Assembly: GCA_903908285.1 (NCBI GenBank)
Contig: CAIVRH010000029.1
Location: 102,037 to 166,036 of the forward strand
Source: an uncultured candidate division Zixibacteria bacterium
Lineage (GTDB): Bacteria; Zixibacteria; MSB-5A5; SM1-73
Direction: 5' to 3'
Length of the DNA: 64,000 bases
In this document: positions 7,692-61,881 of the stretch, one piece after another
How the letters are laid out: each line of letters begins with the position of its first letter
How positions within the stretch are numbered: position 1 is the stretch's first letter
Made by a program: the position numbers and the translations under genes
Notes under the pieces: generated by a model
What the model was told of the DNA's origin: nothing
Database searches by the model: none
Seen by the model: only the letters and a program-made list of their open reading frames with translations

Positions 7692-7797
7692 AACCCCCCG
7701 AATCCCCCTTGTCAGGGGGATAATCCCCCTAATATCTTTAAAGGGTGAAGTTCCTTAGGATGAACTCCCTGTCAGTGTAACGGAGAGGGGGATAATA
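7692..7797. repeat. family-1 variant element (cccccttgtcaggggga ... ctccctgtcagtgtaacggagaggggga)
   Basis: Two related palindromes. A shorter copy lies at 8201-8235. Confidence 0.55.
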
Positions 7798-7958: not shown

Positions 7959-8280
7959 CTACGCATACAAATTCTTGCTCGTCATGAACATCTTGTCAGT
8001 GACATTTAGTAAAATGGCAACGGAAATACAAAAGAGGAGTAAACCGAATGGTTCACCCCAGAGGCGTCCTTCGATCCTTCGATAAACTCAGGATGCTGAG
8101 CGAAGTCGAAGCATAAAGCTCAGGACTTCGTAAAGACTCTGCTACGCGGATTGGGTTCTCGTTGGATGATAACATCCAACGAGAGCGGGGCTTTTCGTCC
8201 TTGCAAACCCCCTGTTTCCCCCTTGTCAGGGGGATAAACCAGTATCGTCCTTCTGATAAGGAGGACAGTATGAGGACTTT

Positions 8281-8835
8281 TTACTTCACGACAAAACGCT
8301 CGATCCACTGTTCGAATGCTTGCAGGAATTTCTTCAGGTAATCTCTTGTCGAATCGTTGATCAAATTCCCTTTGTCGTCGAACAAGCTGGCAGCATTGCC
8401 GATGTATGCTTCTGGCTGTCCCATGGTGGGCACGTTGACGAACACCAGAGACTGCCTGAGGTGATGGTTGGCGCCAAAAGCACCGAGCGCACCTGTGGTG
8501 CAGCTGATGACCGCGCCCGGTTTACCGTTCCACGTGTTTTGTCCATATGGACGCGATCCCATATCGATGGCGTTTTTCAAAACGGCGGGAACCGAGCGGT
8601 TATACTCCGGTGTAACAAACAGAACGGCATCGGCCGATTTGACCCTCTGCCTGAATTCGTTCACTTCTTTGGGCGGATTTTCCTCGAGATCTTGATTGTA
8701 GAACGGCAGATTGCCGATTTCGACGATTTCAAGCTTGAGCGATTCCGGCGCCAGAACAATTAATGCTTTTGCTAATTTGCGATTCCACGAATCCCTACGC
8801 AAACTGCCGACAAAGACTGCTACATTCTTGTACAT
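8281..8835 (-). CDS. NADPH-dependent FMN reductase family protein
   Basis: 184 aa. MYKNVAVFVGSLRRDSWNRKLAKA...VLFVTPEYNRSVPAVLKNAIDMGSRPYG is the FMN_red/ChrR/ArsH-type fold. Confidence 0.8.
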   Translation of the reverse strand: MYKNVAVFVGSLRRDSWNRKLAKALIVLAPESLKLEIVEIGNLPFYNQDLEENPPKEVNEFRQRVKSADAVLFVTPEYNRSVPAVLKNAIDMGSRPYGQNTWNGKPGAVISCTTGALGAFGANHHLRQSLVFVNVPTMGQPEAYIGNAASLFDDKGNLINDSTRDYLKKFLQAFEQWIERFVVK

Positions 8836-8872
8836 AACCCTAAAATCCTTTCACCAAAAATAAGACTACATT

Positions 8873-8899
8873 AGAATAGTGTGAGGAGCACGGGATTCC
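8873..8899 (-). repeat. cassette-boundary element (attC-like imperfect palindrome), copy a
   Basis: agaatagtgtgaggagcacgggattcc, about 45 nt downstream of the stop of gene 8942-9322. rc reads GGAATCCCGTGCTCCTCACACTATTCT. Confidence 0.5.
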
Positions 8900-8941
8900 T
8901 ATCTTACTGATAATTGATCACCATATTCAGCTTTGAGTTCT

Positions 8942-9365: not shown

Positions 9366-9689
9366 TTAAGCTACCGGACTCCATATATTGGCTGAAAAAG
9401 TGGCTGGTTCGATCAGCAGGTGAAAAGCCGACTGAATTTTCTTCATCCCCTCGTCGTCGAAAATCCTTTTATTTATCTTCTCGCTTTCTGCCAGGTTCTC
9501 GTACTCCCATATTTCAATGTACATGCCGGTCGGTGAACCGTAGGTCTGCTTGAAAAGCTTCCACGATATCACCCCGTCGAAAAGCTGGGCATGATCCTGC
9601 TTGTATTTGACGAACTCGTTCAGCAATGGCGTGAATTCTGCTTTTTTTTCTGCTTTCACAACATACGTTTCCACTACGAAGATACTCAT
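9366..9689 (-). CDS. ABM-like (antibiotic biosynthesis monooxygenase / stress-responsive alpha-beta barrel) protein
   Basis: 107 aa with the ferredoxin-like pattern ...FVKYKQDH...MYIEIWEYENLAESEK... Confidence 0.4.
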   Translation of the reverse strand: MSIFVVETYVVKAEKKAEFTPLLNEFVKYKQDHAQLFDGVISWKLFKQTYGSPTGMYIEIWEYENLAESEKINKRIFDDEGMKKIQSAFHLLIEPATFSANIWSPVA

Positions 9690-9759
9690 CTCTTCACCTC
9701 CTTCAAGCGAATTGAACTGCGCACTTGATAAATGAATGGTATCCGGGGCATGGTTTTCA

Positions 9760-9853
9760 TGATTTGGTGCTTGGTGCCAGCGCTGTTGCCAATTTACGGT
9801 TCCACGACTCCTTACGCAAACTGCCGACGAAGACTGCTAGATTCTTGTTCATA
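9760..9853 (-). pseudogene. degenerate 5' fragment of a FMN-reductase gene
   Basis: rc reads MNKNLAVFVGSLRKESWNRKLATALAPST*. About 85% nucleotide identity to 8760-8835 (the start of the intact FMN-reductase gene). Confidence 0.6.
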
Positions 9854-9940
9854 ATTACCTCTTTATGAAAGAGGATAATCTGTGTCAGGAGCTCGGAACA
9901 CATGACCACCGACTAGATGGAATAAATATATTATCCTTCT

Positions 9941-10510
9941 TCATTTGATTATTATTGGTGGTCCGGTATATGGAGCATAAAAGTCGCCACTTACCCTCAT
10001 TGAGTCACCTCCACCGTACTCACTACCTATCTCCGCGTTGATAGTAAACTGTACCTCGCCTGGGAATCCGCACTTCAGCTTTTGAAAAACAATCCCACCG
10101 TTCGACACTTCCTGCTCATTTGACAATTCGTTGGGAGCATCAACAACATAAAGTAAGACCCCTTTCGGTTGGTCCCATATGAAATAATTGGGGAACTTGA
10201 TCTCCTCGCCTATCTTCACATCGTCGACTACTGCCTGCAAATGCCAACAGGTTTTGCTGTCTGGATAATTGGAATCATAACCTACAAGAACGTTAAGGGT
10301 ATTGGTAGGGATCAAACCTTCTTCCCATTGTCCGCACCAAACTGAAGTCCTGGAGCTAAATACGACTTGGGTTCCGTCGGACCGTGTAAAGATAAGATTA
10401 TTCTTCACTGGACCAGTATCGGAGCGAGAGCTATTCTTGTGACAACCAATTAGATTGAACACGGATAAAACACCCACCAACAATATAATATAATTGTTAA
10501 AACGTAGCAT
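9941..10510 (-). CDS. hypothetical lipoprotein
   Basis: Signal peptide with lipobox (VFNLIGC). 189 aa. Confidence 0.5.
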   Translation of the reverse strand: MLRFNNYIILLVGVLSVFNLIGCHKNSSRSDTGPVKNNLIFTRSDGTQVVFSSRTSVWCGQWEEGLIPTNTLNVLVGYDSNYPDSKTCWHLQAVVDDVKIGEEIKFPNYFIWDQPKGVLLYVVDAPNELSNEQEVSNGGIVFQKLKCGFPGEVQFTINAEIGSEYGGGDSMRVSGDFYAPYTGPPIIIK

Positions 10511-10712
10511 ATTGCCTCCTTTCCATGAGGTAAGAATCCATCTCGTAATCGTGGCTAAGAGTTTTGGCAGGAGTTACAGCTCATGACCTTGTATCTTACC
10601 TTTCAGATCGTATCTTATGATCCGAACTCCTTTTTGAAGTTGAGCGCTGCGAATAGCTCGCACCTAAATATCTACCTCTCAAGAACTCCCACTTTGAATA
10701 CGATCTTCCTGT

Positions 10713-10766
10713 GTTATTTTATCAATCTCCTCTTCATCAGCTTGGTGCCGATGTAGAAAGCGGCAA
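10713..10766 (-). pseudogene. short fragment of an ABC-2 permease 3' end
   Basis: tatcaatctcctcttcatcagcttggtgccgatgtagaaagcggc matches 20545-20600. It is interrupted by a GC-rich palindrome. Confidence 0.5.
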
Positions 10767-10905
10767 TTCTGTAAGGGTCGCACAGACGTGCCCCCAGGCG
10801 GGAGCGTCCGCTCGTCTGGGCATTCATGCGACCCCCGCCTTTAGCGGGGCTGTAAGCCGCGGGCTTGACTTGTGGTGAGTTTATCGAACCATGAATCAAG
10901 CCCCT

Positions 10906-11060
10906 ACTTTATCAATCTTCTCTTCATCAGCCTGATGCCGATGTAGAAAGCGGCGGATTCGAGGAGAATGATGTATAAAAAGTCCATTAAAAGTCCCGGA
11001 GAAGGCTCGCCGGAGAAAGCGGAGCGGGAGATATTGACTACGTGGGTAAGGGGAACTCTT
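10906..11060 (-). pseudogene. degenerate copy of the ABC-2 permease 3' end (about 150 bp)
   Basis: Near-identical to the last ~50 codons of the permease gene at 20545-20700 (…SGEPSPGLALD…YIGIKLMKRRLIK), same orientation. Confidence 0.65.
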
Positions 11061-11189: not shown

Positions 11190-12140
11190 TCAACCATGAA
11201 TGATCTGCTCGAGTAAGAATCCGGAGATATCGGTTTTGATCTGTATCCACAACGGGAGGTGGTCGGAGAGCTGGTAAGTGAATTCCTCTTTTTTCATACC
11301 GTCCGGGAAAAGTTCCTGGATATGGGCTTCGTCTATGAAGAAATCGAGCACGCCCCCTGCATTGCTAAAATTCTCCGGGTAGTTTGGATAATGGAGGATC
11401 TGATCATAGCGTTTACTTTTGGCGAGATCAGTGCCGGGGGCATCGAGGAGCTTATCGGGAATCTTCAGGCCGTATTTGGTGATGGCCTTGAACGTGGGGT
11501 CCTCGCGCGAGGGGATGTTGAAGTCGCCCATGATCATGAAGTCATGGTCTTCTGCAAATTTGTCCAGACGCTTGCCCTCGATCCAGGCGGCCAACATGGC
11601 TATTTCGCCCTCGCGCCCCTCCATGCTGTCGCCCCACCGAATGTGCGTGGTCAGCACCACGAAATCGAAGATGCCGGATTTGAAGGAAGCGAGGTAAGGA
11701 CTTCGCCAAAAGGACTTCTCGGACAAATATTCCTGACCTATTTTCTTGCGCGGCTCGTTCGCCTCGGCGGCCAGTCCGTTGAAGGTGGCAGCCCGCTGGT
11801 CATAAACATAAGCCACGCGTTCCCGGTTGCCGCCTAGGTCGGGGATGACGTCCGAGAAAACCGCGCGCCAGTAAGGTCCGAGGATTTTTAAAACCCGGCC
11901 GAGGTCAGCGAGATTGTCTCGCAATTCAACGATCCCAATCAGATCGAACTGGCCGAGGATTTCCGCAATGTAATGGATGGCCGCTTCACTGCGTGGTGTC
12001 TTGCCAAACTCCCGGATGTTCCAGGTGGCAATATTCAAGGTTTCGTCGAGTTTCGACGAGGGAATTTTCGCTGCCTGAATGCGCTTCTGCAAGGCAATCA
12101 AACCCCGGGCAATGTCCGGAGAAACATCTCCATGTTCCAT
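11190..12140 (-). CDS. endonuclease/exonuclease/phosphatase (EEP) family protein
   Basis: 316 aa. IATWNIREFG near the N-terminus, GDFN, and C-terminal SDHLPLW are the EEP catalytic motifs. No signal peptide. Confidence 0.75.
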   Translation of the reverse strand: MEHGDVSPDIARGLIALQKRIQAAKIPSSKLDETLNIATWNIREFGKTPRSEAAIHYIAEILGQFDLIGIVELRDNLADLGRVLKILGPYWRAVFSDVIPDLGGNRERVAYVYDQRAATFNGLAAEANEPRKKIGQEYLSEKSFWRSPYLASFKSGIFDFVVLTTHIRWGDSMEGREGEIAMLAAWIEGKRLDKFAEDHDFMIMGDFNIPSREDPTFKAITKYGLKIPDKLLDAPGTDLAKSKRYDQILHYPNYPENFSNAGGVLDFFIDEAHIQELFPDGMKKEEFTYQLSDHLPLWIQIKTDISGFLLEQIIHG

Positions 12141-12409
12141 AGGTATCCTCCTTTACCGCTTGTACTACTATTTATCAGTTATATGGAGCATCTAAGCTAC
12201 TAACTGACAATGAATAAGCAGATAGGTCAATTATCCTAAAGGATGATCGACAATTTTTCCCATCCAGCAGTCTTGCAGACATACTTAACCTACTATTACC
12301 GGGTCGTGACAGCACATAACTACCATCGAGCTAACGCAAGAGGGTCAGGTGTAGGTAGAACGTCACCCGGACCCTCCGGTTAGGCCAAATAGAAATAGTA
12401 GAGCAGCCA

Positions 12410-13246
12410 TCAATCAAATTTCAACTCGCGTTTGGTTGCCTCGCATTCCAACTGCGGAGTCTGGTTGTAGTGCCCTGCGTTCAGGTGGGCGCGGATTTTT
12501 GTCAGCACCTGTGCACGGGAAAGCGAATTGTTACAGGCGTACATTTCTTTGCAGAAATAGTAAGTGAACGCCCCATGCCAACCACCGGCGATATGGGCAT
12601 CCGCACTCGTCTGGTCGGCACGGCAGGCAGCCCAGAGGATGTGATGCACGATCCCCTTTTCCAGCAACCCGCGCGCGAGTCCGCGAGATCGCTTCCCTTC
12701 CACCTCGATGAATGCCTCCAACGATGGGGGCGGCAGGTAGCGCGGCGTTCGATCAAGCAGCAGGTCAACCGCCTTGAGTCCCGTACCGCTGTGGCAGGTA
12801 TCCAAGTAAACCTCCAAAAGCACATTGGGAGGAAGCTGGATGAACAAATCTCGCAGCTCGTCATCCACGATGACATGATTCCTGTCCCATTGGTTGCCTG
12901 CCTGGGTCAGGTCATGCGGGCAAAACGCCTCATCCGCACGATCAGGTTCATCGTGGTTTAAATCCGGCACCTGTGTGCCATGACTTGACAGGCTGAATAC
13001 CAAGTAGGAGTATTTGCCTGCTTTTGCGCCATCTACCATGGTTTTGAGGTTGCTCATGATATTGGCTTTTGTGGCTTGTGCATCGTGTAGCTGGGTAATA
13101 TCTGTGCCGGCAAATCCGAGCAGCTTCTGCAGCAAAGCCGACATTTCGTTGGCATCATTGACACAACCTTGCAACGTAGAACCGGGATAGTTCTTGAACT
13201 GATTGATTCCGACACATAGGGCTTTTCTGTTACTAGGCATAAGCAC
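12410..13246 (-). CDS. caspase-like peptidase (family C14)
   Basis: 278 aa. KALCVGINQFKN...LQGCVNDA, catalytic His in SSHGTQ, and catalytic Cys in DTCHSG. No signal peptide. Confidence 0.8.
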   Translation of the reverse strand: MLMPSNRKALCVGINQFKNYPGSTLQGCVNDANEMSALLQKLLGFAGTDITQLHDAQATKANIMSNLKTMVDGAKAGKYSYLVFSLSSHGTQVPDLNHDEPDRADEAFCPHDLTQAGNQWDRNHVIVDDELRDLFIQLPPNVLLEVYLDTCHSGTGLKAVDLLLDRTPRYLPPPSLEAFIEVEGKRSRGLARGLLEKGIVHHILWAACRADQTSADAHIAGGWHGAFTYYFCKEMYACNNSLSRAQVLTKIRAHLNAGHYNQTPQLECEATKRELKFD

Positions 13247-13490
13247 CTCCTTAGGTTGTGCTCGTTGGGATTGACAGGACCGTTCAGTAACGAGCCAGAC
13301 TAAGCCGGTCCCCTTTCATTGAACTTCATCCTCTGACTGATTTTCCCCTCATTTTTACAAAAGCACTCTTTTCCCTGGCATAATGTCAAGCGTCGGTGGC
13401 TGGGTGGGCGCTTTTTCCTCTCCGTCCACGAACACCCGAATCAGGCGACGGTTTAGCTTGACAGCAATTACAGCCTAACTCACTTTTGAC

Positions 13491-14438
13491 TTAAAACTTA
13501 AACTGTCCGGTATCGATCCACTCATTCTTTAGAACTGACCACCAATCAACAGCGAGTCCTTTCAACACATAGTCATAAGGGAGCCAACCATAACCGCCGG
13601 TACCCCATTCTGGACCCCAAGAGTTTCTGATGAGTAAGGCTCCTGTGGTTTCGACACCTCCCGGATTGGTGTTTTTAATCGTCATTCTATCGTCGTAACC
13701 AACGGCATCAATGGCATGACCACCTAAAATCTTCTCTCCGGGTGTGGGAAAAGGTATCTTTCCGGTTGTGGCAGCCTGGGATAAGGAACTATACACCGTA
13801 AAGCCGAACATCGAGGGTAGATAAGCAGCTAAATTTGTCTTGATCCGATTCAGCAGAGCATCCTTAGGAGTTCCAGGCGGATCATAACGGTAGTAGCTAA
13901 TCGCCTTGTAGCTCTGGGCGTAGGCATAGCAGAATGCCGGCGGCTCCAGATCAAAGTGGTAGGTTGGAACAATAGGCTCGCCGATTCCTTTATCGGTGTA
14001 CGGCCAATATTCCTCCGGGGGCACGCCAAATAATACCAATGCGCCCATGGTGGTACGAAGAAAGGCTCCGGTGTCTCCAGACCAGTGTAACATGTTTCGG
14101 GTTGCCTTATAAAGGAAGAGTCTGGAAGCATCAATATGTTTTCCGAAGGCCTTTTTCTCAAAATACTCTACTATTCCAACACCCGCATGGGCCGTGCATG
14201 AACCAAGACTAAGTTGGTTCTCGATAGGAGAGCACCAGGGCCTTAAATCTGCAGATACCGGCAGGCTTACTCCCGCCGGTTCCGCTACTCCTGCTTTCTT
14301 GAGCATGGCCTTAACAGAATCTGCCTGTCCCAAAGCTTTAAGCGTTTCAGGAATATCTTCTTGCTCTACCGTGTGGTCCCTGAAATCGGGATAATCCGGT
14401 AGCCATCCCATTCCCAATTTTTCAATGATCTCAGCCAT
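13491..14438 (-). CDS. papain-like cysteine peptidase (family C1)
   Basis: CSPIENQLSLGSCTAHA (oxyanion Gln plus catalytic Cys), GGHAIDAVGYDD (catalytic His), and NSWGPEWGTGGYGW. The start is taken at the internal ATG at 14438, which has a GGAGGTG RBS; the longer ORF start at 14537 is unlikely. Cytoplasmic. Confidence 0.8.
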   Translation of the reverse strand: MAEIIEKLGMGWLPDYPDFRDHTVEQEDIPETLKALGQADSVKAMLKKAGVAEPAGVSLPVSADLRPWCSPIENQLSLGSCTAHAGVGIVEYFEKKAFGKHIDASRLFLYKATRNMLHWSGDTGAFLRTTMGALVLFGVPPEEYWPYTDKGIGEPIVPTYHFDLEPPAFCYAYAQSYKAISYYRYDPPGTPKDALLNRIKTNLAAYLPSMFGFTVYSSLSQAATTGKIPFPTPGEKILGGHAIDAVGYDDRMTIKNTNPGGVETTGALLIRNSWGPEWGTGGYGWLPYDYVLKGLAVDWWSVLKNEWIDTGQFKF

Positions 14439-15146
14439 AATATACACCTCCAATTCAATTAGGACCTTAGTTTGTCGAGTTTTTCTACCAAAACAACCTA
14501 CAAGACAGCAATCCGCTTTGCTAACTAATCGCTTCACCTCCTTTCAGCGCCAATCATAATGCCGCCTAACTCTGAATATACTGCCCGGTATAACACCCGG
14601 GGTACCGCTCCGAGTGTTATATAATACACAGCAGAAAAAACTGTCTACTTGGTCATATCCGATGAAATATCAGGTGGTCACATCGAGACGCCGGTTTTAT
14701 CGCAGCGTCTTCTTTGCGTCAATAGAGATTCCTTCGTGTCTATTTTTATACAACTAAGTCAAGAACCTGATACCGCTAATATTTATCAAGTTTATAGGGA
14801 CTTAGCCTGCGAACCTATTATAACTACCCCTAATTATATTTCTGTATTCTATTCTTAAAAAATATAGGACTACTGTCAAATTTTGTCAAGCTTTTTTTAT
14901 AATATTTCTGAAAAATCGTTCCTACGGGGCTTGATGCCCCTTCCTCCAACATTGAGGTCTTAAAGACCGAAGGGCAGGATGAAGCTCTCTTGTGCGTTGG
15001 TAACCTATTGAGATTCAACACGAAAACGAGCAGAGTCTACCTTAAGCAGGATTATTTTTGGCATTTATTCAGGGCTTTATATGGGGATATTTATGATTAA
15101 TAATTTCTATCGACTAAGATTAATTGAGGATATTGCTTCCGACCGC

Positions 15147-15386: not shown

Positions 15387-15414
15387 AGAATAGTGTCAGG
15401 AGCACGAGGCTCCT
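15387..15414 (-). repeat. cassette-boundary element, copy b
   Basis: agaatagtgtcaggagcacgaggctcc immediately downstream of the FMN-reductase 5' fragment. rc has a GGAGC-ctcgt-GCTCC hairpin. Confidence 0.5.
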
Positions 15415-15424
15415 AACCTGCAAA

Positions 15425-15533
15425 CTTGCGTGGCTAAGGGCGCCAGCGCGATCAATGCTTTTGCCAATTTGCGATTCCACGAATCCTTCCGCAAACTGCC
15501 GACGAAGACTGCCACATTATAGTTCTTATTCAT
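15425..15533 (-). pseudogene. degenerate 5' fragment of a FMN-reductase gene
   Basis: rc reads MNKNYNVAVFVGSLRKDSWNRKLAKALIALAP... It matches 8735-8835 and is followed by a premature stop. Confidence 0.6.
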
Positions 15534-15544
15534 AATGATCCTTT

Positions 15545-15571
15545 AGAATAGTGTCAGTAGCGCGGGGCTCC
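15545..15571 (-). repeat. cassette-boundary element, copy c
   Basis: agaatagtgtcagtagcgcggggctcc, 5-30 nt downstream of the stop of gene 15576-16046. Confidence 0.5.
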
Positions 15572-15575
15572 AGAC

Positions 15576-16046
15576 CTACTTGCTCTTGCGTGTACACCGC
15601 CCTTTGTGTTTTTTTCTATCCCAAAATAGACTTCGCCAACTTTTAATCTCGAAGGGAACGAGGGCATTGTGCAGAGTTGAAGTACCTCTTGTCCGGACAT
15701 ATCGACCATTTTTCCGGCTCCAACCATGATCGTCGACAATTTTCTCTGCTTCAGAATAAGGCATTCCAAAGGCCCGGGTCTGCAACTCTGTCCCCACATT
15801 CCAAAGATAAACAATGTAGAGATCTGGAATTTTCAGATATTTCTGGTCCGTGAAGAACTCCTCTCCAGAAAAAGACTTCAACTGAAGAGGGAGGGCTCGG
15901 AAACCTTCATCCACGCAATCGGTATAGACGATGAGATCTATCCCTTCGTCAATGTCTGGGCGAGCAAACTTTATTCCCTCTCGGTAAAGCTTCTCTGCAA
16001 CGTAAGCTTCCCCGATTTTTTCGATTTGATGGCTCGATAGTTCCAT
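15576..16046 (-). CDS. small PD-(D/E)xK (Mrr-cat-like) nuclease-fold protein, hypothetical
   Basis: 156 aa. EKIGEAYVAEKLYREG...PDIDEGIDLIVY...LPLQLKS fits the D...D/E-x-K (QxK variant) pattern of Mrr-type catalytic domains. This is a weak call. Confidence 0.35.
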   Translation of the reverse strand: MELSSHQIEKIGEAYVAEKLYREGIKFARPDIDEGIDLIVYTDCVDEGFRALPLQLKSFSGEEFFTDQKYLKIPDLYIVYLWNVGTELQTRAFGMPYSEAEKIVDDHGWSRKNGRYVRTRGTSTLHNALVPFEIKSWRSLFWDRKKHKGRCTRKSK

Positions 16047-16088: not shown

Positions 16089-16146
16089 CAAGTGCCCTGC
16101 GCACCTGAAAAACGAATAGTGGCAGGAGCATGAGGTATCTGACATA
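16089..16146 (-). repeat. cassette-boundary element, extended copy d
   Basis: caagtgccctgcgcacctgaaaaacgaatagtggcaggagcatgaggtatctgacata, downstream of the REC gene stop. Confidence 0.5.
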
Positions 16147-16205
16147 ATACAGCTACTAACTACTTTGTAGCAATACAGTTGTTGTAGCTAACTTAGTATT
16201 AGAAC

Positions 16206-16952
16206 TCATGTTGGTTGTTTTTTCCCAACTTTGATAGGATTCGACCGACTCTCTGCAATTGTCGTAATGGATTTTTGCACCAAACTCTCAATGGAGTAAC
16301 AAAACTCTATATTTTGGAAACGTACAATCATAACGTCTTTACTAATATTCTCAACTTGTTCCGGCTTATATGCTGTATAGAAGATAACTGGGAGGTCCCG
16401 AATTACAAGATCATCATGTTTCTCGCGTAGTTCTTTTATTTGCTCCATACCACCGTAGGTAGCATTCCCCTGTTTGTCTCTCCATTGAATATCCGATATA
16501 ATCAAGTCAAAGTCATTATCTTCCTCGATTCTTTTCTTAATGGTTTCCGGTGTGGCTGATATAACCTCAATTCCCAATGCCCTCAACAAGCGCCTCTCAC
16601 CAACAACCACATGTGGATTATCGTCTATCCAGAGGATTCTTCCCCCCTGCGCTTCAGCAATTTTGGAACCCAAACTCGCAAGCAGTCTTCTGAGCTTCTT
16701 AGGTTGAGCATCTAACATTCCATATAACGCTCCCTGAACCTGCGGTTGTTCTAATTGCAACTCGACGCCACCAGCCTTAAAGTATTTCAGTCTTTCCCAA
16801 GGAAGAACCAAGATCAAAACTGCAACAACAAAAAGCACAAGAATAGTGGTATCCATATTGTGACTTGCGATATCATGCATTTTCAACCTCATTAATATAA
16901 TTAACATCGCGAAACCGGTTAGTCCGAACTTTATCCCGAGCCACGTTTTCAT
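16206..16952 (-). CDS. membrane-anchored stand-alone response-regulator receiver (REC) domain protein
   Basis: Two N-terminal transmembrane helices, then a canonical REC: ILWIDDNP (acidic pair), DLIISDIQW (phospho-acceptor Asp), VIFYTAY (Thr), YKP (Lys). No output domain and no kinase nearby. Confidence 0.7.
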   Translation of the reverse strand: MKTWLGIKFGLTGFAMLIILMRLKMHDIASHNMDTTILVLFVVAVLILVLPWERLKYFKAGGVELQLEQPQVQGALYGMLDAQPKKLRRLLASLGSKIAEAQGGRILWIDDNPHVVVGERRLLRALGIEVISATPETIKKRIEEDNDFDLIISDIQWRDKQGNATYGGMEQIKELREKHDDLVIRDLPVIFYTAYKPEQVENISKDVMIVRFQNIEFCYSIESLVQKSITTIAESRSNPIKVGKKQPT

Positions 16953-17090: not shown

Positions 17091-17147
17091 TCAAGTGCCC
17101 TGCGCACCAGACAAATGAATAGTGTCAAGAGCACGGGACTGCTGATC
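17091..17147 (-). repeat. cassette-boundary element, extended copy e
   Basis: tcaagtgccctgcgcaccagacaaatgaatagtgtcaagagcacgggactgctgatc, downstream of the ABC ATPase stop. About 80% identical to copy d. Confidence 0.5.
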
Positions 17148-17208
17148 TACCTACTATTTCGCCTCTCCAATCTGAAACTAAAAATCCTTAATAAATTTTT
17201 TATCTTAA

Positions 17209-19002
17209 TCAGAATTTTGGCAAATTAAACAAGGTGCCAGCCTGTCCCTCATCATTTAGTTCCCTGATAATTTCTTCTTTCTTGAATTCAATAACCTTGT
17301 CATTTTCATCCCTTGGTAAATCTGCAGTAATTATAGTCAAGATGTACTGCAATCCATAGGAACCACAATATTCCCTGACAAGTTCTAGAAAATTATTCTT
17401 CTTTCTGTTATCAAGGCCCTCAAGGATGCCATCATGGTAAACGAATCTGAAAAAAGAGCGTTTTGCATAATTTTTCAATATGGCCAAATCGAAAGCAGCG
17501 CAAAGTAGCTTCTTGTAGGTTGTTCCTCTGCCTTCGCTTGTTGCCTCCATAGTTTTTTCATCATGGACAATATCAGCACTAAAGTCAATATTGCCCATAG
17601 TATTAATCTTAATAGACAATAAAGCTGAAATATTCAAAACTGCTTTGATAATCCTGTCAAAATCATTTCTAATATCGGAATATAAGCTCGCTCCAGCCTT
17701 AATTTGGTCGTTGATATTGTCAACAAGCCCTTTTCTCTTCTGTTCATATCCATCTATCTCTTTTTGTATGACAGCAACTGAATCAAGAGTCTCAAGCTGA
17801 GAATGCAGTCTTACTAAATCAGTCTCCTGGTGCACTAAGCTTTTCTGTAGCAATTTAAACTTATCAAAAGTATCTTCTCCTCGTAATATTCTGAGAAGAT
17901 CCTCTCTTTTTGAATTTAAATCTCTCAGTTGTCCGCATACCGAATCCTGCTCTTGCTTCAAAGTTTGAAGCCTTTCTTTTAGTCTCTTATTTCTTTCAGC
18001 AGAAATATTCTCATTAAATTTTACTAAATCCGTGTAGCCTTTCATCAGTTTATCAGGAAAATGAATCTGTGTTTCCTCAAATATCTGTTTTACTTCATTC
18101 AAGTCAAAATTGACTTTGGCTTCTAGAGCATCCTGAATTTTCTCAATCTCATAATTAATGTTGTAAACCTGATCATTAAGAGAGGCGATTTCAGTCTCAG
18201 TCTTCTCGACTAATTCTTTATTAATACTGAGCTCTTTTTCATAAAAATTAAACCTATCTATCTTTTCATAAGCTTCTTTTATTTCCCTCTGCTTTATTTC
18301 AATGGCTCCTTTTAGCTTGTCATATTCCTCTGTCTTTGTAGTCAAGGTCTTTTTATATTCCGCCTTGTATTTCTCCCTGCTCTCTATTGTCTTATCTATT
18401 TCATATTTCTCTTTCAACAAAGAGTCATCAAAACCCAATAATTTTGCAAGATAAGGCTTCCATTGAGAATGTTCCCCAATGCTGAATTTGCTTATCTGGA
18501 AAACATCTTGATAATCGCTTTGCGTCCTCAAGAAATAAGAAACACCTTTCCGGTAAGGCCATGGTGCTATCGAATCAAGATCAAGATAGGAATTAAGACT
18601 GTCTACCGCCTTCCGGATTGGCATTCCGCTGTAATCCCATTGCTTTTCTCCATGATTTTTAAAATCCTGGAATTTATCGTCATGAATTTTGAAACATATC
18701 TTGGTATTGTTATCAACACATCGTTTGATGGTTAGATATTTACCTGAATTAAGCAGTATCTCCAGATAAAACTCGAATCCCCTGAACTCTTTTTTATTGT
18801 CATAAAGAAAGTGCCCATCTTTCAACTCCTTAAGTAAAAGAAAATCAATAAGATGAATAAGGAGGGTTTTACCTAGATTATGTGAATCTTTATAAGTTTC
18901 CTTGGGTCTTCTGACTTTCCCATAAATTACATTAAAGCCTTCATTAAAGTGGATGGGCTTAAATATCTCGTCTCTGTTTGAATATATCTTGCTTAGTTTC
19001 AT
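17209..19002 (-). CDS. SMC-like ABC ATPase with a long coiled-coil insert (Lamassu LmuB / ABC-3C ATPase-like)
   Basis: 597 aa. N-terminal KLSKIYSNRDEIFKPIHFNEGFNVIYG...SHNLGKT (Walker A). About 300 aa of KE-rich coiled coil. C-terminal ...GRGTTYKKLL...FFRFVYHDGILEGLD (signature / Walker B / D-loop analogues). Confidence 0.6.
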   Translation of the reverse strand: MKLSKIYSNRDEIFKPIHFNEGFNVIYGKVRRPKETYKDSHNLGKTLLIHLIDFLLLKELKDGHFLYDNKKEFRGFEFYLEILLNSGKYLTIKRCVDNNTKICFKIHDDKFQDFKNHGEKQWDYSGMPIRKAVDSLNSYLDLDSIAPWPYRKGVSYFLRTQSDYQDVFQISKFSIGEHSQWKPYLAKLLGFDDSLLKEKYEIDKTIESREKYKAEYKKTLTTKTEEYDKLKGAIEIKQREIKEAYEKIDRFNFYEKELSINKELVEKTETEIASLNDQVYNINYEIEKIQDALEAKVNFDLNEVKQIFEETQIHFPDKLMKGYTDLVKFNENISAERNKRLKERLQTLKQEQDSVCGQLRDLNSKREDLLRILRGEDTFDKFKLLQKSLVHQETDLVRLHSQLETLDSVAVIQKEIDGYEQKRKGLVDNINDQIKAGASLYSDIRNDFDRIIKAVLNISALLSIKINTMGNIDFSADIVHDEKTMEATSEGRGTTYKKLLCAAFDLAILKNYAKRSFFRFVYHDGILEGLDNRKKNNFLELVREYCGSYGLQYILTIITADLPRDENDKVIEFKKEEIIRELNDEGQAGTLFNLPKF

Positions 19003-19015
19003 TTTCTATTATTGT

Positions 19016-19264
19016 TTACGTATTATTTTTACCAATAAATTCCAATGAATCTGTCTGTAAGTGGTATTCGATCATGCCGAGTAAATATAAAAAATCCAAC
19101 GACGGCACAAAAACATGTTTTACATCTTCTCCAATCTTGCCAACCAAATACTGCAATACCTCACTATATTCCATTACTCTGTTATTCTCGAACAGCTTAA
19201 TAAGCATGGAGGATACCCTGACTACAGATAAGTCCAAATCCATATATTTTGTCGGGGTTATCAT
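19016..19264 (-). CDS. small alpha-helical 'middle component' (LmuC-like) of the ATPase module
   Basis: 82-aa ORF tightly sandwiched between the effector and the ATPase: 4-nt overlap upstream and a 13-nt gap downstream, which suggests translational coupling. Confidence 0.35.
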   Translation of the reverse strand: MITPTKYMDLDLSVVRVSSMLIKLFENNRVMEYSEVLQYLVGKIGEDVKHVFVPSLDFLYLLGMIEYHLQTDSLEFIGKNNT

Positions 19265-20199
19265 TTCTTCTCACCTATATCGCAATTACAGTACATATAA
19301 TGCAAAAACACATTTATCAAAGTTCGCGATTCCCTAAGTTCGGGATGCTTGTCAAGTATTGTATCGTAAAGATGCTCAAAAATTTCTTCGAATTTGGCAA
19401 ATTCATTCTTTCTTGTGATTATCTTCCCTTTCAACTCATCAATCGTATTGTAGTAGTAATCTGTATACTTCTTGTTTATCAGCTTCTTTAGGAAAGCTGT
19501 TATTGCATTAAAGGAAGACTCCGAATTTTCCTTGATATATTTAAAATACTCTTCACTCAACTTATTCAGCTCGTTCTTTGTTTCAAGGCTTACATAGTCG
19601 AACGAGTACTTGCTGTCAAATTCCGTAGCAACCTGCTCTCGGTCATTATAAAAAGCTACGATAACATCCCTTATGTCATCAGAGTGTATTCTTAATGGAT
19701 CTCTGAATTTCTCAAGGTTACAAGTTTTTACTATGGCAGGATTCGCATCAAGCCAAAGAGTAATCGCCTCAACTCCAATAATCTCAACATTGGAAATGCT
19801 AAGATTATTCTTGAGATAATCCGTTTGCTGCTGATGTGCTTCAGCAGTAAGTTTTCTGTTTGTGAAAATGAGATAATTATCAACTTCTCCATTTTGTTTT
19901 AACTTCTTAATTTTGGGGATTTCTTTGTCCAATATCTTAGTCTTAAAATCCGCATGAGAACAACTCGAGTTAGGGTTATTAGTCTTTTTTGCCTGAATAA
20001 TAAATTTTCCTGTCCATGGTCTTGCAGCACTTGGATACTGGTTTGAAGTGCCTTCAAACTTCCCATCTCTACCACCATCTGGCCCTTCACTGAAATTTAT
20101 GGTTCCAATTCCCAATATTTTTTGGCAAATATGGATAACCAGATCCTCAAATTTCTGTGTAGAAAGCTCGTGAAGATGATAATCCCTCATTATAAACAC
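19261..20199 (-). CDS. Mrr-type restriction-endonuclease-fold effector protein
   Basis: The N-terminus FEDLVIHICQKILGIGTINFSEGPDGGRDGKFEG...GKFIIQAKK matches the Mrr_cat pattern (F-E-x-L...G...G-DGG-D-G...IQ-x-K). The C-terminal ~170 aa have no recognisable domain. Confidence 0.55.
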   Translation of the reverse strand: MFIMRDYHLHELSTQKFEDLVIHICQKILGIGTINFSEGPDGGRDGKFEGTSNQYPSAARPWTGKFIIQAKKTNNPNSSCSHADFKTKILDKEIPKIKKLKQNGEVDNYLIFTNRKLTAEAHQQQTDYLKNNLSISNVEIIGVEAITLWLDANPAIVKTCNLEKFRDPLRIHSDDIRDVIVAFYNDREQVATEFDSKYSFDYVSLETKNELNKLSEEYFKYIKENSESSFNAITAFLKKLINKKYTDYYYNTIDELKGKIITRKNEFAKFEEIFEHLYDTILDKHPELRESRTLINVFLHYMYCNCDIGEKK

Positions 20200-20541
20200 C
20201 TCTTAACGTATACCAAATTACTTATTAATAAACTTATCTTAAAAAAATAGCTGTTAGATTTTGCCGCTTATTTAATCTATTATATTAGAAAGGAGATAAA
20301 AACCAAGAGAAAAAAGCCACTCAAATCTATATTTTGAAACTTGCCCATATCCAGCTTAAATTTGGAAGATCAGGTGTCATGCACACTTGACAAAAAAAAG
20401 TATCAAGAACACGTATCTCCTCATCTATTATTATCTATTCATAAACTATTATAATCATTCATGCCATCTTGTCAAGCACTTAAGAACAGTAATTATGCGT
20501 TTTTACATAATAATTTTTCTAACAAGCGCGGGCTTCGACCA

Positions 20542-21309
20542 CTACTTTATCAACCTTCTCTTCATCAGCTTGATGCCGATGTAGAAAGCGGCGGATTCAA
20601 GGAGAATGATGTATAAAAAGTCCAGCGCCAAGCCCGGAGAAGGCTCGCCGGAGAAAGCGGAGCGGGAGATATTTACCGCATGGGTAAGAGGAAGGAACTT
20701 GGCGAAGAATTTCATCCAACCGGGGAACCGGTCCAGCGGGAAAAATACTCCGGAGAAAAAGAGCATGGGGGTGATAATCAGCTCGGTATAGTAATTGAAG
20801 AAGTCGAAGTTCGGCGCAAACGAGGTTACGATCATCGCCAGCGAGCCGAACAAGATACCGATGAAAACCATCAAGACCAACAGAAGCAGAACGTTGACTA
20901 TCGAGACCGGATATACATGCATGAAAGTGGCAACCACCAGCATGAGCGACCCGCTGATCAATCCCCGGAAAGCTCCCCAGGCGACCTCTCCGGCTATGGC
21001 ATCCTCTGCGGATACGGGGGTGGCTATCAAAGAGTCGAAGAGCTTCTGGTAGGTGACCTTGACGAAGGTGCCGTATAAACACTCGAAAGTCGACGAGAGC
21101 ATCACCGAAGATACCAAAACGCCGGGGACGAGAAAATTCAGATAGGGCTTCCCGCCGAAATACCCCATATATGCGCCCATGCCGATGCCGAAGGTGATCA
21201 GATAGAAGAGCGGCTGCCCCAGACTGACCACGAAGGTGGTGAGAACGAACCTTTTGTATGAAATAAGGTTCCGGTAAAAGACATAATATATGCGGTAAGA
21301 AAGATTCAT
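20542..21309 (-). CDS. ABC-2 type transporter permease
   Basis: 255 aa with six hydrophobic helices. Paired with the upstream ATP-binding gene. Confidence 0.8.
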   Translation of the reverse strand: MNLSYRIYYVFYRNLISYKRFVLTTFVVSLGQPLFYLITFGIGMGAYMGYFGGKPYLNFLVPGVLVSSVMLSSTFECLYGTFVKVTYQKLFDSLIATPVSAEDAIAGEVAWGAFRGLISGSLMLVVATFMHVYPVSIVNVLLLLVLMVFIGILFGSLAMIVTSFAPNFDFFNYYTELIITPMLFFSGVFFPLDRFPGWMKFFAKFLPLTHAVNISRSAFSGEPSPGLALDFLYIILLESAAFYIGIKLMKRRLIK

Positions 21310-61029: not shown

Positions 61030-61881
61030 CTAAAGCGGTTTTGCTGTGGACCGTGGACTATCGACCGTGGACGTTTTTCTCCTTAAGAAATAAACCACAT
61101 TTCCCCAAACGATTATAAGAACTATGACCAGATGACTCACCGACTGCGCATCCATCCCCTTTTGACCCATCCCCGGTTTTTCAAGCAGAATTTCGTATTC
61201 TGCCGCACCTTTCAGCCCGCCTAACAGCCCGACCATTTGACCGGAGGAGAGAAACGGATAGAAACTGGTGGCCATCACCGCAGTGGTGGCACAGGCGAAT
61301 TTAGGGTGATAGCGCGAGACCGCATAATCCACCCAGGTAACCGGCAGATCACCGTCCGCTACGGAAATTATCAATTTGACTTCGTTATAGTTTTTGATAT
61401 CCTTCATCATCGGAATCCGGTCCAAAGAAGTGTTATTGTAATCCTGCGGAAAAACTCTTTTTATCTCCTCTCCCATTCCCAAGATAGCCGACTGGGCTTG
61501 CGGTCTGTATCCCAAAAACACATAATCCTCCCCATAATTAGCCTGATATTCGTTAGCGGTTTCCCTTAAGAGCTGCTCTCCGATTGCGGTTCCCTCTGCC
61601 ATAAGCGCCAGGGTGATCACCTTGAGTTTTTTCTGAAAACAATGGCGCAATATTGCTTGAGCCATCGGCTTAACCTCAGGTAGAGACGAAGCCTCGTGGT
61701 CAAAGGAGATCATCATCACCGAACCGGAGTCCAATTGCTCGATGCTTTCATATACATTCCTCACCTCGGTGGTGACCTGGTTGGGCAGTCCGATTTTGAT
61801 CACCAGAGGAATGGCGACGGAAAGAGCGATTAAGACGAATATCAATTGTCGAGACAACATTCTAGGTAATTTAAAATTCAA
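61030..61881 (-). CDS. membrane-anchored hypothetical protein
   Basis: N-terminal transmembrane anchor, a ~230-aa soluble domain, and a C-terminal transmembrane helix. Confidence 0.45.
   Translation of the reverse strand: MNFKLPRMLSRQLIFVLIALSVAIPLVIKIGLPNQVTTEVRNVYESIEQLDSGSVMMISFDHEASSLPEVKPMAQAILRHCFQKKLKVITLALMAEGTAIGEQLLRETANEYQANYGEDYVFLGYRPQAQSAILGMGEEIKRVFPQDYNNTSLDRIPMMKDIKNYNEVKLIISVADGDLPVTWVDYAVSRYHPKFACATTAVMATSFYPFLSSGQMVGLLGGLKGAAEYEILLEKPGMGQKGMDAQSVSHLVIVLIIVWGNVVYFLRRKTSTVDSPRSTAKPL

Follow-up and report, generated by a model that had tools for sequence, protein, structure and literature searches.

The 64,000-nucleotide (nt) window analyzed here (positions 102,037 to 166,036 of contig CAIVRH010000029.1, assembly GCA_903908285.1), from an uncultured candidate division Zixibacteria bacterium, contains a variable island in which three genes, all on the minus strand, code for a papain-like (C1) peptidase, a caspase-like (C14) peptidase, and a DNase I-like enzyme of the EEP fold, separated by intergenic gaps of 250 nt (13241-13490) and 269 nt (12141-12409). 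The frequency with which C1 and caspase genes adjoin in distant lineages greatly exceeds chance, and the caspase gene of the window is preceded by what we are fairly confident is a structured RNA leader, of a kind also present ahead of relatives of both protease genes. The EEP gene is an independent accessory gene, an unrelated neighbor of the protease pair. The GyrA of this bacterium falls into a 90% cluster with a protein attributed to a Zixibacteria metagenome-assembled genome. Coordinates are collected in Table 1.

The caspase-like protein matches the Peptidase_C14 profile (PF00656) over positions 2 to 230 of 233 (1e-27, 97.8 bits against a cut-off of 21.4) and aligns with metacaspase-9 (3e-19), with the His of SSHG and the Cys of DTCHSG on the catalytic positions (metacaspase crystal constructs carry G or A at that of the Cys); Yca1 and Geobacter GSU0716 are the other structural matches. 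The fold, the His/Cys dyad, and an acidic residue two positions ahead of the Cys place the protein in family C14, and its D-x-C motif, typical of Arg/Lys-specific metacaspases, predicts specificity for Arg/Lys. The longest open reading frame (ORF), 12410-13246, opens two codons earlier at GTG 13246, and ATG 13240 is most likely the real start because homologs have the corresponding length. These homologs are 62-99% identical in bacteria and archaea, with those of methanogenic archaea still at 62-74%, and PADLOC returns a weak, stand-alone 'caspase' match (1.6e-16, 166 of 453 model positions), with no match for the C1 or EEP protein. Single-domain prokaryotic metacaspases have been surveyed previously (PMC3501461).

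The C1 protein matches Peptidase_C1 (PF00112) at 1.5e-10 (42 bits against a Pfam cut-off of 20.7), and its nearest solved structure is xylellain (3OIS; 2e-28 over residues 58-302), with the Cys of GSCTA, the His of GGHA, and the Asn/Trp of NSWG aligned; cathepsins also align, and the full Q/C/H/N-W catalytic set is intact. A papain fold above the cut-off together with this Gln/Cys/His/Asn(-Trp) set places the protein in family C1A. The catalytic domain is preceded by an N-terminal segment of about 57 amino acids (aa), of which residues 6-25 look like xylellain residues 29-48, a stretch that is not significant by itself. The N-terminal segment of xylellain blocks the active-site cleft. The longest ORF, 13491-14537, begins at GTG 14537, which falls within a Shine-Dalgarno (SD)-like GGAGGTG, and ATG 14438 is most likely the real start because homologs share the resulting length and the exact 315-aa protein is recorded as P0121. 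Homologs are 72-79% identical across many phyla of environmental anaerobes. Xylellain-type C1A peptidases have undergone rampant horizontal transfer, with methanogens among the recipients (PMC10380794), and the substrate of xylellain remains unidentified (PMC12090721).

The EEP protein scores 5.7e-8 with Exo_endo_phos (PF03372; 33.2 bits against a cut-off of 24.5) and aligns with DNase I alone among solved structures (7e-7), with WNIREFG, VELRD, THIRW, and GDFNI on the catalytic motifs; the alignment covers the N-terminal two thirds of the protein, through the N, E, H, and D/N motifs. The S-D-H of SDHLPLW is invariant among homologs (71-84% identical), and the profile score together with the N, E, H, D/N, and D-H motifs places the protein in the EEP superfamily. 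Its N-terminus carries a conserved extension of 35 aa, and its C-terminal third is divergent. Assignment to the MnuA or ExeM/NucH family was ruled out, with NCBIfam scores of 44.2 bits against 185 and 15.7 against 300 and an N-terminus that is not hydrophobic by inspection, and an AlphaFold model built from a shallow alignment (predicted local distance difference test score of 43.6) is too poor for fold comparison. As a cytoplasmic enzyme that lacks a partner gene, it is presumably tightly regulated or narrow in its substrate.

A first-pass annotation, made from the sequence alone, had read these three same-strand genes as an EEP enzyme, a C14 peptidase, and a C1 peptidase with intact catalytic residues and no signal peptides, and the ORFs, the Pfam searches (all above curated cut-offs), and the alignments to solved structures agree with it; none of the three proteins has a hydrophobic N-terminus, as judged by reading alone.

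Table 1. Features of the island and its surroundings in window coordinates, with the basis of each assignment
Feature	Coordinates	Strand	Basis
Xylellain-type short C1A (papain-family) cysteine peptidase, 315 aa from the most likely start	13491..14438	minus	Pfam, PDB 3OIS, homologs
Stand-alone metacaspase-like C14 peptidase, 276 aa from the most likely start, His (SSHG)/Cys (DTCHSG) dyad	12410..13240	minus	Pfam, PDB metacaspase-9/Yca1/GSU0716
DNase I-like EEP-fold enzyme, 316 aa, cytoplasmic by inspection, without partner gene	11190..12140	minus	Pfam, PDB DNase I
Caspase leader pseudoknot (predicted)	13260..13312	minus	Sequence reading and model R2
Leader helix P1, GGGACCG/CGGUCCU and UUAGU/ACUGA	5' strand 13312-13306 and 13303-13299; 3' strand 13288-13284 and 13282-13276	minus	
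Leader helix P2, GCUCGUU and AACGAGC	13295-13289 and 13266-13260	minus	
SD sequence GGAGG, then ATG	13250-13246; 13240	minus	
Transferable C1 unit (ORF with 111 nt of leader and 110 nt of tail)	13381..14549	minus	Nucleotide identity to locus L091
Best sigma-70-like promoter match 5' of the C1 gene: TTGACA, 17 nt, TATATT; 11/12	14861..14889	minus	Consensus scan only
Duplicated ABC-2 permease 3' end fragment, upstream boundary of the three-gene segment	15143..15297	minus	73% identical to D1 reference copy 10901-11055
Second permease 3' fragment, downstream boundary of the three-gene segment	10901..11055	minus	Repeat families D1/D3, 90-92% to the intact copy
Third permease 3' fragment	10715-10764		Repeat families D1/D3
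FMN-reductase 5' fragment closing the preceding (ABC-3C) segment	15439..15535	minus	Repeat family D2; translation matches the FMN_red N-terminus
Other FMN-reductase 5' fragment	9764-9860		Repeat family D2
ABC-3C Mrr_cat+CTD12 effector	19261-20190	minus	
ABC-3C MC8 middle component	19016-19264	minus	
ABC-3C DUF2326 ABC ATPase	17209-19002	minus	PADLOC PDC-M68B, 2e-60

The association between the two protease genes emerges from their relatives. Eighty caspase-centered loci, one per species and with up to 10 kb of flank per side, were fetched and searched for the other window proteins (counts are given over 82 loci), together with a C1-centered set of 80 metagenome loci, of which just 46 extend upstream by more than 1.2 kb and 35 extend downstream by more than 1.2 kb. 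C1 homologs are present in about 10 of the 82 caspase loci, all within 1.7 kb of the caspase gene and mostly 15-250 nt from it or overlapping it, some with one gene between, and there are none elsewhere in the flanks; reciprocally, 8 of the 80 C1 loci carry a caspase gene. The pair occurs in both gene orders and in both bacteria and archaea (Methanobacterium, Methanoregula, another euryarchaeote, Desulfobacterales, Syntrophales, and Anoxymicrobiaceae), with no other neighbors in common, and in the tight cases the genes are 15-60 nt apart or overlap. No EEP homolog is present near the caspase homologs (0 of 82 caspase loci), the sole EEP gene near a C1 gene, 243 nt upstream in 1 of the 80 C1 loci, is a paralog of 32-34% identity, and the trio of EEP, caspase, and C1 genes was found only in contigs of this same organism. 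The co-occurrence that the first-pass annotation had proposed as a check thus holds for the C1-caspase pair and fails for the trio.

Some loci carry longer hydrolase arrays. Desulfobacterales-like contigs contain, in order, caspase, C1, a 487-aa patatin, and a 913-aa patatin gene, and an array in a Syntrophales metagenome-assembled genome (MAG) runs from caspase through a 124-aa ORF and C1 to an 801-aa C39-like peptidase that bears a Tectonin domain, and a patatin/DUF3376 gene lies close by; the arrays were located at L044 17-6018, L100-L103 and L112, and L001 4350-9467.

Each of the three genes also occurs without the others, and these units move independently and are strongly conserved. A C1 gene of at least 90% identity lies alone between ribonucleotide reductase and rplM in locus L091, where the window C1 unit matches positions 9890-11056 with 86% nucleotide identity over 1170 nt; homology extends beyond the C1 ORF by 111 nt on the upstream side and 110 nt on the downstream side, and the flanks in L091 (ribonucleotide reductase, rplM/rpsI) are unrelated to the window. 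In Chlorobiaceae, carriers of which include Chlorobium ferrooxidans and Chlorobium sp. KB01 (loci L010 and L011), the neighborhood of the caspase gene is conserved and of housekeeping type (a zinc peptidase, an amino-acid permease, and tmk), caspase genes 85-86% identical to the window gene (in a Binatia MAG and one metagenome contig) lie among metabolic genes, and EEP genes are found alone in Verrucomicrobia and Acidobacteria, with conserved neighbors of their own. No conserved sensor, immunity, or partner gene was found in the neighborhoods of the window or its relatives. All three proteins have relatives at 70-85% identity across many phyla, a level of conservation that fits horizontally spread, conserved enzymes better than fast-evolving defense effectors. 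No viral relatives were found in IMG/VR (using single-sequence patterns), and plasmid relatives in PLSDB reach at most 50% identity, the Sporomusa and Photobacterium plasmid contexts being uninformative.

Two further observations concern the surroundings of the C1 gene. The upstream edge of the 1.17-kb unit (14524-14549) resembles the SD/start region of an unrelated gene at 9684-9709 (repeat D8), and the promoter match listed in Table 1 is a lead, not a finding, as promoter-like sites are not enriched over shuffles.

These distributions bear on the idea, put forward in the first-pass annotation, that the three genes form one abortive-infection or toxin module that kills the infected cell. Such a module would account for the position of the genes in a variable island adjoining a bona fide ABC-3C conflict system, the PADLOC 'caspase' match, the toxin-antitoxin and restriction genes near homologs at some loci, the effector-like patatin phospholipases that follow caspase and C1 genes at others, and the distant EEP gene adjoining C1 at one locus, but it is quite improbable given the confinement of the trio to this organism, the lack of any EEP-caspase linkage, the stable housekeeping synteny of homologs, the absence of sensor, immunity, and partner genes, conservation across phyla and domains unlike that of fast-evolving effectors, and the missing viral and close plasmid relatives. 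Moreover, each gene has its own long upstream region, one of them a structured leader. Homologs scattered singly in housekeeping contexts, which the first-pass annotation had named as evidence against a module, are seen for each gene; the sensor or partner genes it proposed to look for in relatives did not appear; and its caution that these could be individual cassettes and not a single operon was well placed. Homologs of all three genes mostly stand alone. The three-enzyme toxin module is therefore largely not supported, and nothing here supports a defense role for any of the three genes.

The second line of evidence joining the two proteases is a conserved leader RNA. In the upstream regions as printed, the C1-type element reads AAGGCUUU-UAAA-GCUGGUG-AAAGCCUU, followed by a linker of 14-20 nt and CACCAGC, and it lies about 20-35 nt ahead of the start codon; over the leaders of both genes, the linker spans 12-20 nt and the distance to the start codon is about 15-35 nt. 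The topology is that of an H-type pseudoknot, in which the loop of hairpin P1 ends in GCUGGUG, which pairs with the downstream CACCAGC (P2). Caspase-type leaders have the same arrangement and P2 sequence, but their P1 stems are quite different, longer, and imperfect. What sets the two subtypes apart is P1 and the tail that follows P2 (UAAA versus ACA), and they have an identical P2 sequence, topology, and distance to the start codon.

Three covariance models were built: R1 from 14 C1-type copies with P1 as the only modeled helix, R2 from a mixed set with P2 as a helix, and R3 from caspase-type copies only. R1 matches directly 5' of 27 of the 80 C1 genes and nowhere else; R2 matches directly 5' of 20 of the 82 caspase genes and of 16 C1 genes, on the coding strand, with no other matches at E<0.05 in about 1.9 Mb searched on both strands. 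The caspase-side hosts span Chlorobiaceae, Acidobacteriota, Syntrophales, Binatia, Desulfopila, Syntrophorhabdus, and Lentisphaerae. Both helices have 87-95% of cells paired, versus 20-60% with the partners slid. In the alignment retrieved with R1, P1 is 87% paired, and P2, which that model does not treat as pairs, is 87.5% paired with three pairs doubly changed, versus 27-57% in slid controls. P1 sequences are wholly different between loci yet fold: with the P2 strand held single-stranded, caspase-type P1 has a mean z of -2.5 relative to shuffles, and 18 of 20 are below -1. This constrained folding replaced an uninterrupted-helix statistic (4.7 bp versus 3.5 bp) that is too crude for caspase-type P1; a generic pseudoknot scanner was rejected as far too permissive, and blastn of the caspase upstream regions returned only the C1 3' end and Chlorobiaceae synteny, the motif being visible by eye and with covariance models. 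G.U pairs outnumber A.C 36 to 17 in the model-retrieved alignment, which points to RNA transcribed from the sense strand more than to a palindrome in DNA.

A secondary structure that is conserved with covariation, belongs to the sense strand, and lies in the 5' leader of C1 and caspase genes is what is expected of a cis-regulatory leader, and we are fairly confident that these are real structured leaders. No match was found in Rfam 15, either across the whole window at gathering scores or, at E values up to 10, for the 300-nt caspase leader, or in 17 related loci, and full-text literature searches returned no description of a caspase- or C1-associated riboswitch or operon. The leaders of EEP genes from eight loci have nothing obvious in common. 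In locus L098 (56-165), the linker that joins P1 to the 3' strand of P2 in a C1-type leader is interrupted by about 110 nt of inserted sequence, containing a promoter-like TTGACT...TATACT and a G11 run; given this insertion, the pseudoknot would need to close over a long loop, or else it is broken.

In the window, the element lies upstream of the caspase gene, and two P2 positions differ from the GCUGGUG/CACCAGC consensus on both sides with pairing kept, a compensatory change. The constrained fold of P1 has a z of -2.9, and R2 has one significant match in the 64 kb (13255-13307, minus strand; 37.7 bits, E 2.9e-7), a score that is not independent evidence because this leader was in the training set. 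The C1 gene of the window has a different leader, and the EEP gene has no match to the motif. A weak candidate of the same topology in the C1 leader was dropped, as it rests on two near-identical sequences. An 11-codon upstream ORF (13284-13319, minus strand; ATG AAA GGG GAC CGG CTT AGT CTG GCT CGT TAC TGA) runs across P1 and the 5' strand of P2 in the caspase leader and is probably fortuitous, since it is not conserved in other leaders.

We consider it probable that the window holds a stack of separately acquired single-gene units in a hot spot, in which the C1 and caspase genes represent a co-regulated protease pair and the EEP gene is unrelated to them. Several observations weigh against this interpretation. 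About 85-90% of the caspase and C1 loci show just one of the two genes within the DNA available. Apart from the 7-bp P2, topology, and position, the leader subtypes have little in common; R1, built from C1-type copies, does not detect caspase-type sites, R3 detects C1-type sites weakly (best 17.6 bits, E 0.07-0.5), and a simple P2+P1 signature is enriched just about 4-fold in caspase leaders. The leaders could be distinct motifs in which one helix is the same by coincidence. One alignment (A2) was built from sequences chosen in part for their pairing, and its counts are biased upward. No conserved expression platform was found among the leaders, and an alternative, SD-enclosing hairpin in the window leader is not seen in those of other loci. 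The C1 gene of the window has no detectable motif, so that within the window the shared-leader argument is limited to the caspase gene. The protease cascade considered below is a conjecture. We are less confident that both leader subtypes form one class than that each is a structured leader.

The same observations are compatible with coincidence, in which unrelated accessory genes are stacked in the island, C1-caspase adjacency reflects shared mobility or insertion sites, and the leaders are two unrelated elements. An island made up of stacked alleles with duplicated junction fragments at their edges, a C1 unit with boundaries of its own, the solitary state of each gene at most loci, the C1 gene without the motif in the window, and the weak cross-detection between leader subtypes would all be expected on that account, which we nonetheless regard as unlikely. 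It does not readily explain why, in distant archaea and bacteria without other common neighbors, the two genes overlap or are 15-60 nt apart, as tightly as in an operon, and this in either order, nor why C1 matches in caspase loci are always adjacent and never elsewhere in the flanks. The identity of P2, topology, and start-codon distance in both subtypes also argues against it, as does cross-detection above chance: of the 16 known C1-type sites, 4 are recovered within the top 15 matches of R3 over 74 kb, where about 0.2 are expected.

The island itself extends from an intact ABC-2 permease gene (20542-21309) to an intact FMN-reductase gene (8281-8835), and the duplicated junction fragments noted in the first-pass annotation are found as repeat families D1-D3. 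Family D1 also takes in the 3' end of the intact permease gene (20539-20693), and the two D2 FMN-reductase fragments, in the order of Table 1, are 84% and 68% identical to 8747-8843. There is no integrase or transposase in the island, which has likely grown by successive stacking of alternative alleles in one intergenic hot spot through recombination in the flanking genes.

Upstream of the three genes, the ABC-3C conflict system (17209-20190, minus strand) is complete by itself. As the three enzymes are on the same strand and 1-6 kb downstream, they could be taken for additional effectors of this system (Mrr-CTD12, MC8, and DUF2326 ATPase), but this is largely refuted: FMN-reductase and permease fragments separate the two segments, no ABC-3C C-terminal adaptor domain (CTD) is found in the three proteins with Pfam, and the same ABC-3C trio (at least 90% identity) is present in five other contigs, where the context differs and all three enzymes are absent from the vicinity. 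The occurrence of the ABC-3C genes elsewhere without the three enzymes indicates that the two segments are independent.

A further alternative is that these are integron-type cassettes and that the folded element is a single-stranded-DNA recombination site rather than an RNA. Single-gene units common to phyla and domains in variable order, a folded element that travels with its gene, and the tolerance of G.T pairs in folded single-stranded DNA are in keeping with such cassettes, but the element lies 5' of the gene, close to the start codon and with constant spacing, whereas attC sites lie downstream, and it has a pseudoknot topology and not that of an attC hairpin. The window has no integron integrase, there is no integrase-sized plus-strand ORF upstream, and a strict R''/R' attC scan (a home-made scan that could miss atypical attC sites) is empty in the island, its one hit in the window being an unrelated site at 61668-61786. 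We regard this alternative as very improbable.

Several other elements were noted in and around the island. Two orphan genes (15576-16046 and 16206-16952, minus strand) sit between the ABC-3C genes and the FMN-reductase fragment, one coding for a membrane protein whose receiver-like domain scores below the cut-off (Response_reg, 28.7 bits) and the other for a DUF4365-like protein, also below the cut-off. A hairpin repeat is present in five copies (8874-8912, 15388-15426, 15546-15584, 16114-16152, and 17117-17155), with the minus-strand sequence GTYAGGAGC-cncgt-GCTCCTGAC-ACTATTC; it is confined to the island and always at gene boundaries, with 0.05 copies expected by chance, and could be a repetitive extragenic palindrome (REP)-like, terminator-like, or recombination-related element. 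A 35-nt element (AACCCCCYG..TCCCCCTTGTCAGGGGGATAA) with a GGGGG/CCCCC hairpin has two copies (7692-7726 and 8206-8240) that are 89% identical to each other and lie at the FMN-reductase edge, one just 3' of the gene and the other about 550 nt farther out.

How a stack of single-gene units containing a co-regulated protease pair might have arisen and function can be outlined from the genomic pattern. Single-gene units would have landed between the ABC-2 permease and FMN-reductase genes, with the junction fragments as scars of allele stacking. Among these units, the C1A and C14 peptidases would be a widely transferred, conserved pair, often in an operon in either order, and unlinked C1 and caspase genes would each tend to have the same kind of 5' leader. 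The leader would be a cis-acting RNA, either a riboswitch or a protein- or ribosome-binding element, controlling translation initiation of both proteases under one signal, such that they could constitute a small regulon even if unlinked. Both proteases may then belong to a single pathway of intracellular proteolysis, in which one might activate the other; for instance, the metacaspase, with its predicted Arg/Lys specificity, could cleave off the N-terminal segment of the C1 enzyme, which is rich in Lys/Arg. The role could be in stress or starvation proteolysis or in regulated cell death. More tentatively, the leader could be a new riboswitch class or an RNA sensing a trans factor that places the horizontally mobile intracellular pair, a metacaspase and a papain-like zymogen, sometimes with phospholipases or nucleases, under one signal, as a self-proteolysis or cell-death switch common to anaerobic bacteria and methanogenic archaea, a possibility that we consider doubtful.

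The proteins and the RNA resemble known systems to differing degrees. Xylellain has the same Q/C/H/N-W set, no signal peptide or I29 propeptide, and an N-terminal G-W/Y-x-PD-x-x-D-x-RD segment similar to one in the window C1 protein, but identity is moderate, and the subfamily in the window often adjoins a metacaspase gene and often has the pseudoknot leader, neither of which was found reported in literature searches. Short xylellain-type C1A peptidases are known to have a patchy distribution and cross-domain transfer, as seen here (PMC10380794). The window caspase shares the C14 fold, His/Cys dyad, and D-x-C-H-S-G motif of metacaspases and orthocaspases (Arabidopsis MC9, yeast Yca1, and Geobacter GSU0716, PDB 3BIJ) but has no prodomain or extra domains, an unusually high conservation of 62-85% across phyla and domains, a recurrent C1 partner, and a structured leader. 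The EEP protein shares the catalytic motifs of DNase I but, compared with it and with the bacterial EEP nucleases MnuA and ExeM/NucH, has no signal peptide or membrane anchor. Gasdermin-protease systems, CHAT or Craspase, and the PADLOC 'caspase' defense systems likewise have a caspase-fold protease in a variable island; in contrast, there is no gasdermin, sensor, CRISPR, or NLR-like partner in the window or in 80 related loci.

The leader is similar to the preQ1-I/II, SAM-II/V, fluoride, and guanidine-III riboswitches in its size of about 50-60 nt, its pairing of a loop with a downstream strand, its position just ahead of the ribosome-binding site, and its variable, covarying peripheral stems around a conserved core. 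The genes downstream of these small pseudoknot riboswitches are metabolic or for transport, whereas those downstream of the leader code for proteases, and, to our knowledge, the GCUGGUG/CACCAGC core is unlike those of the preQ1, SAM-II/V, fluoride, and guanidine-III classes. What takes the place of the three-enzyme module is more specific and moderately novel, namely two protease genes paired across domains and a candidate regulatory RNA common to both, of which one copy lies in the window.

These findings show that genes for effector-looking enzymes that share a variable island with an adjoining defense system need not be defense genes, a caution for screens based on guilt by association. Prokaryotic metacaspases and short papain-like peptidases are widespread, and their cellular roles and substrates are essentially unknown. 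The pairing of the two proteases and the candidate RNA offer a handle on both, as the trigger of the RNA would tell when the cell wants these proteases, and their pairing suggests that they may act in a cascade.

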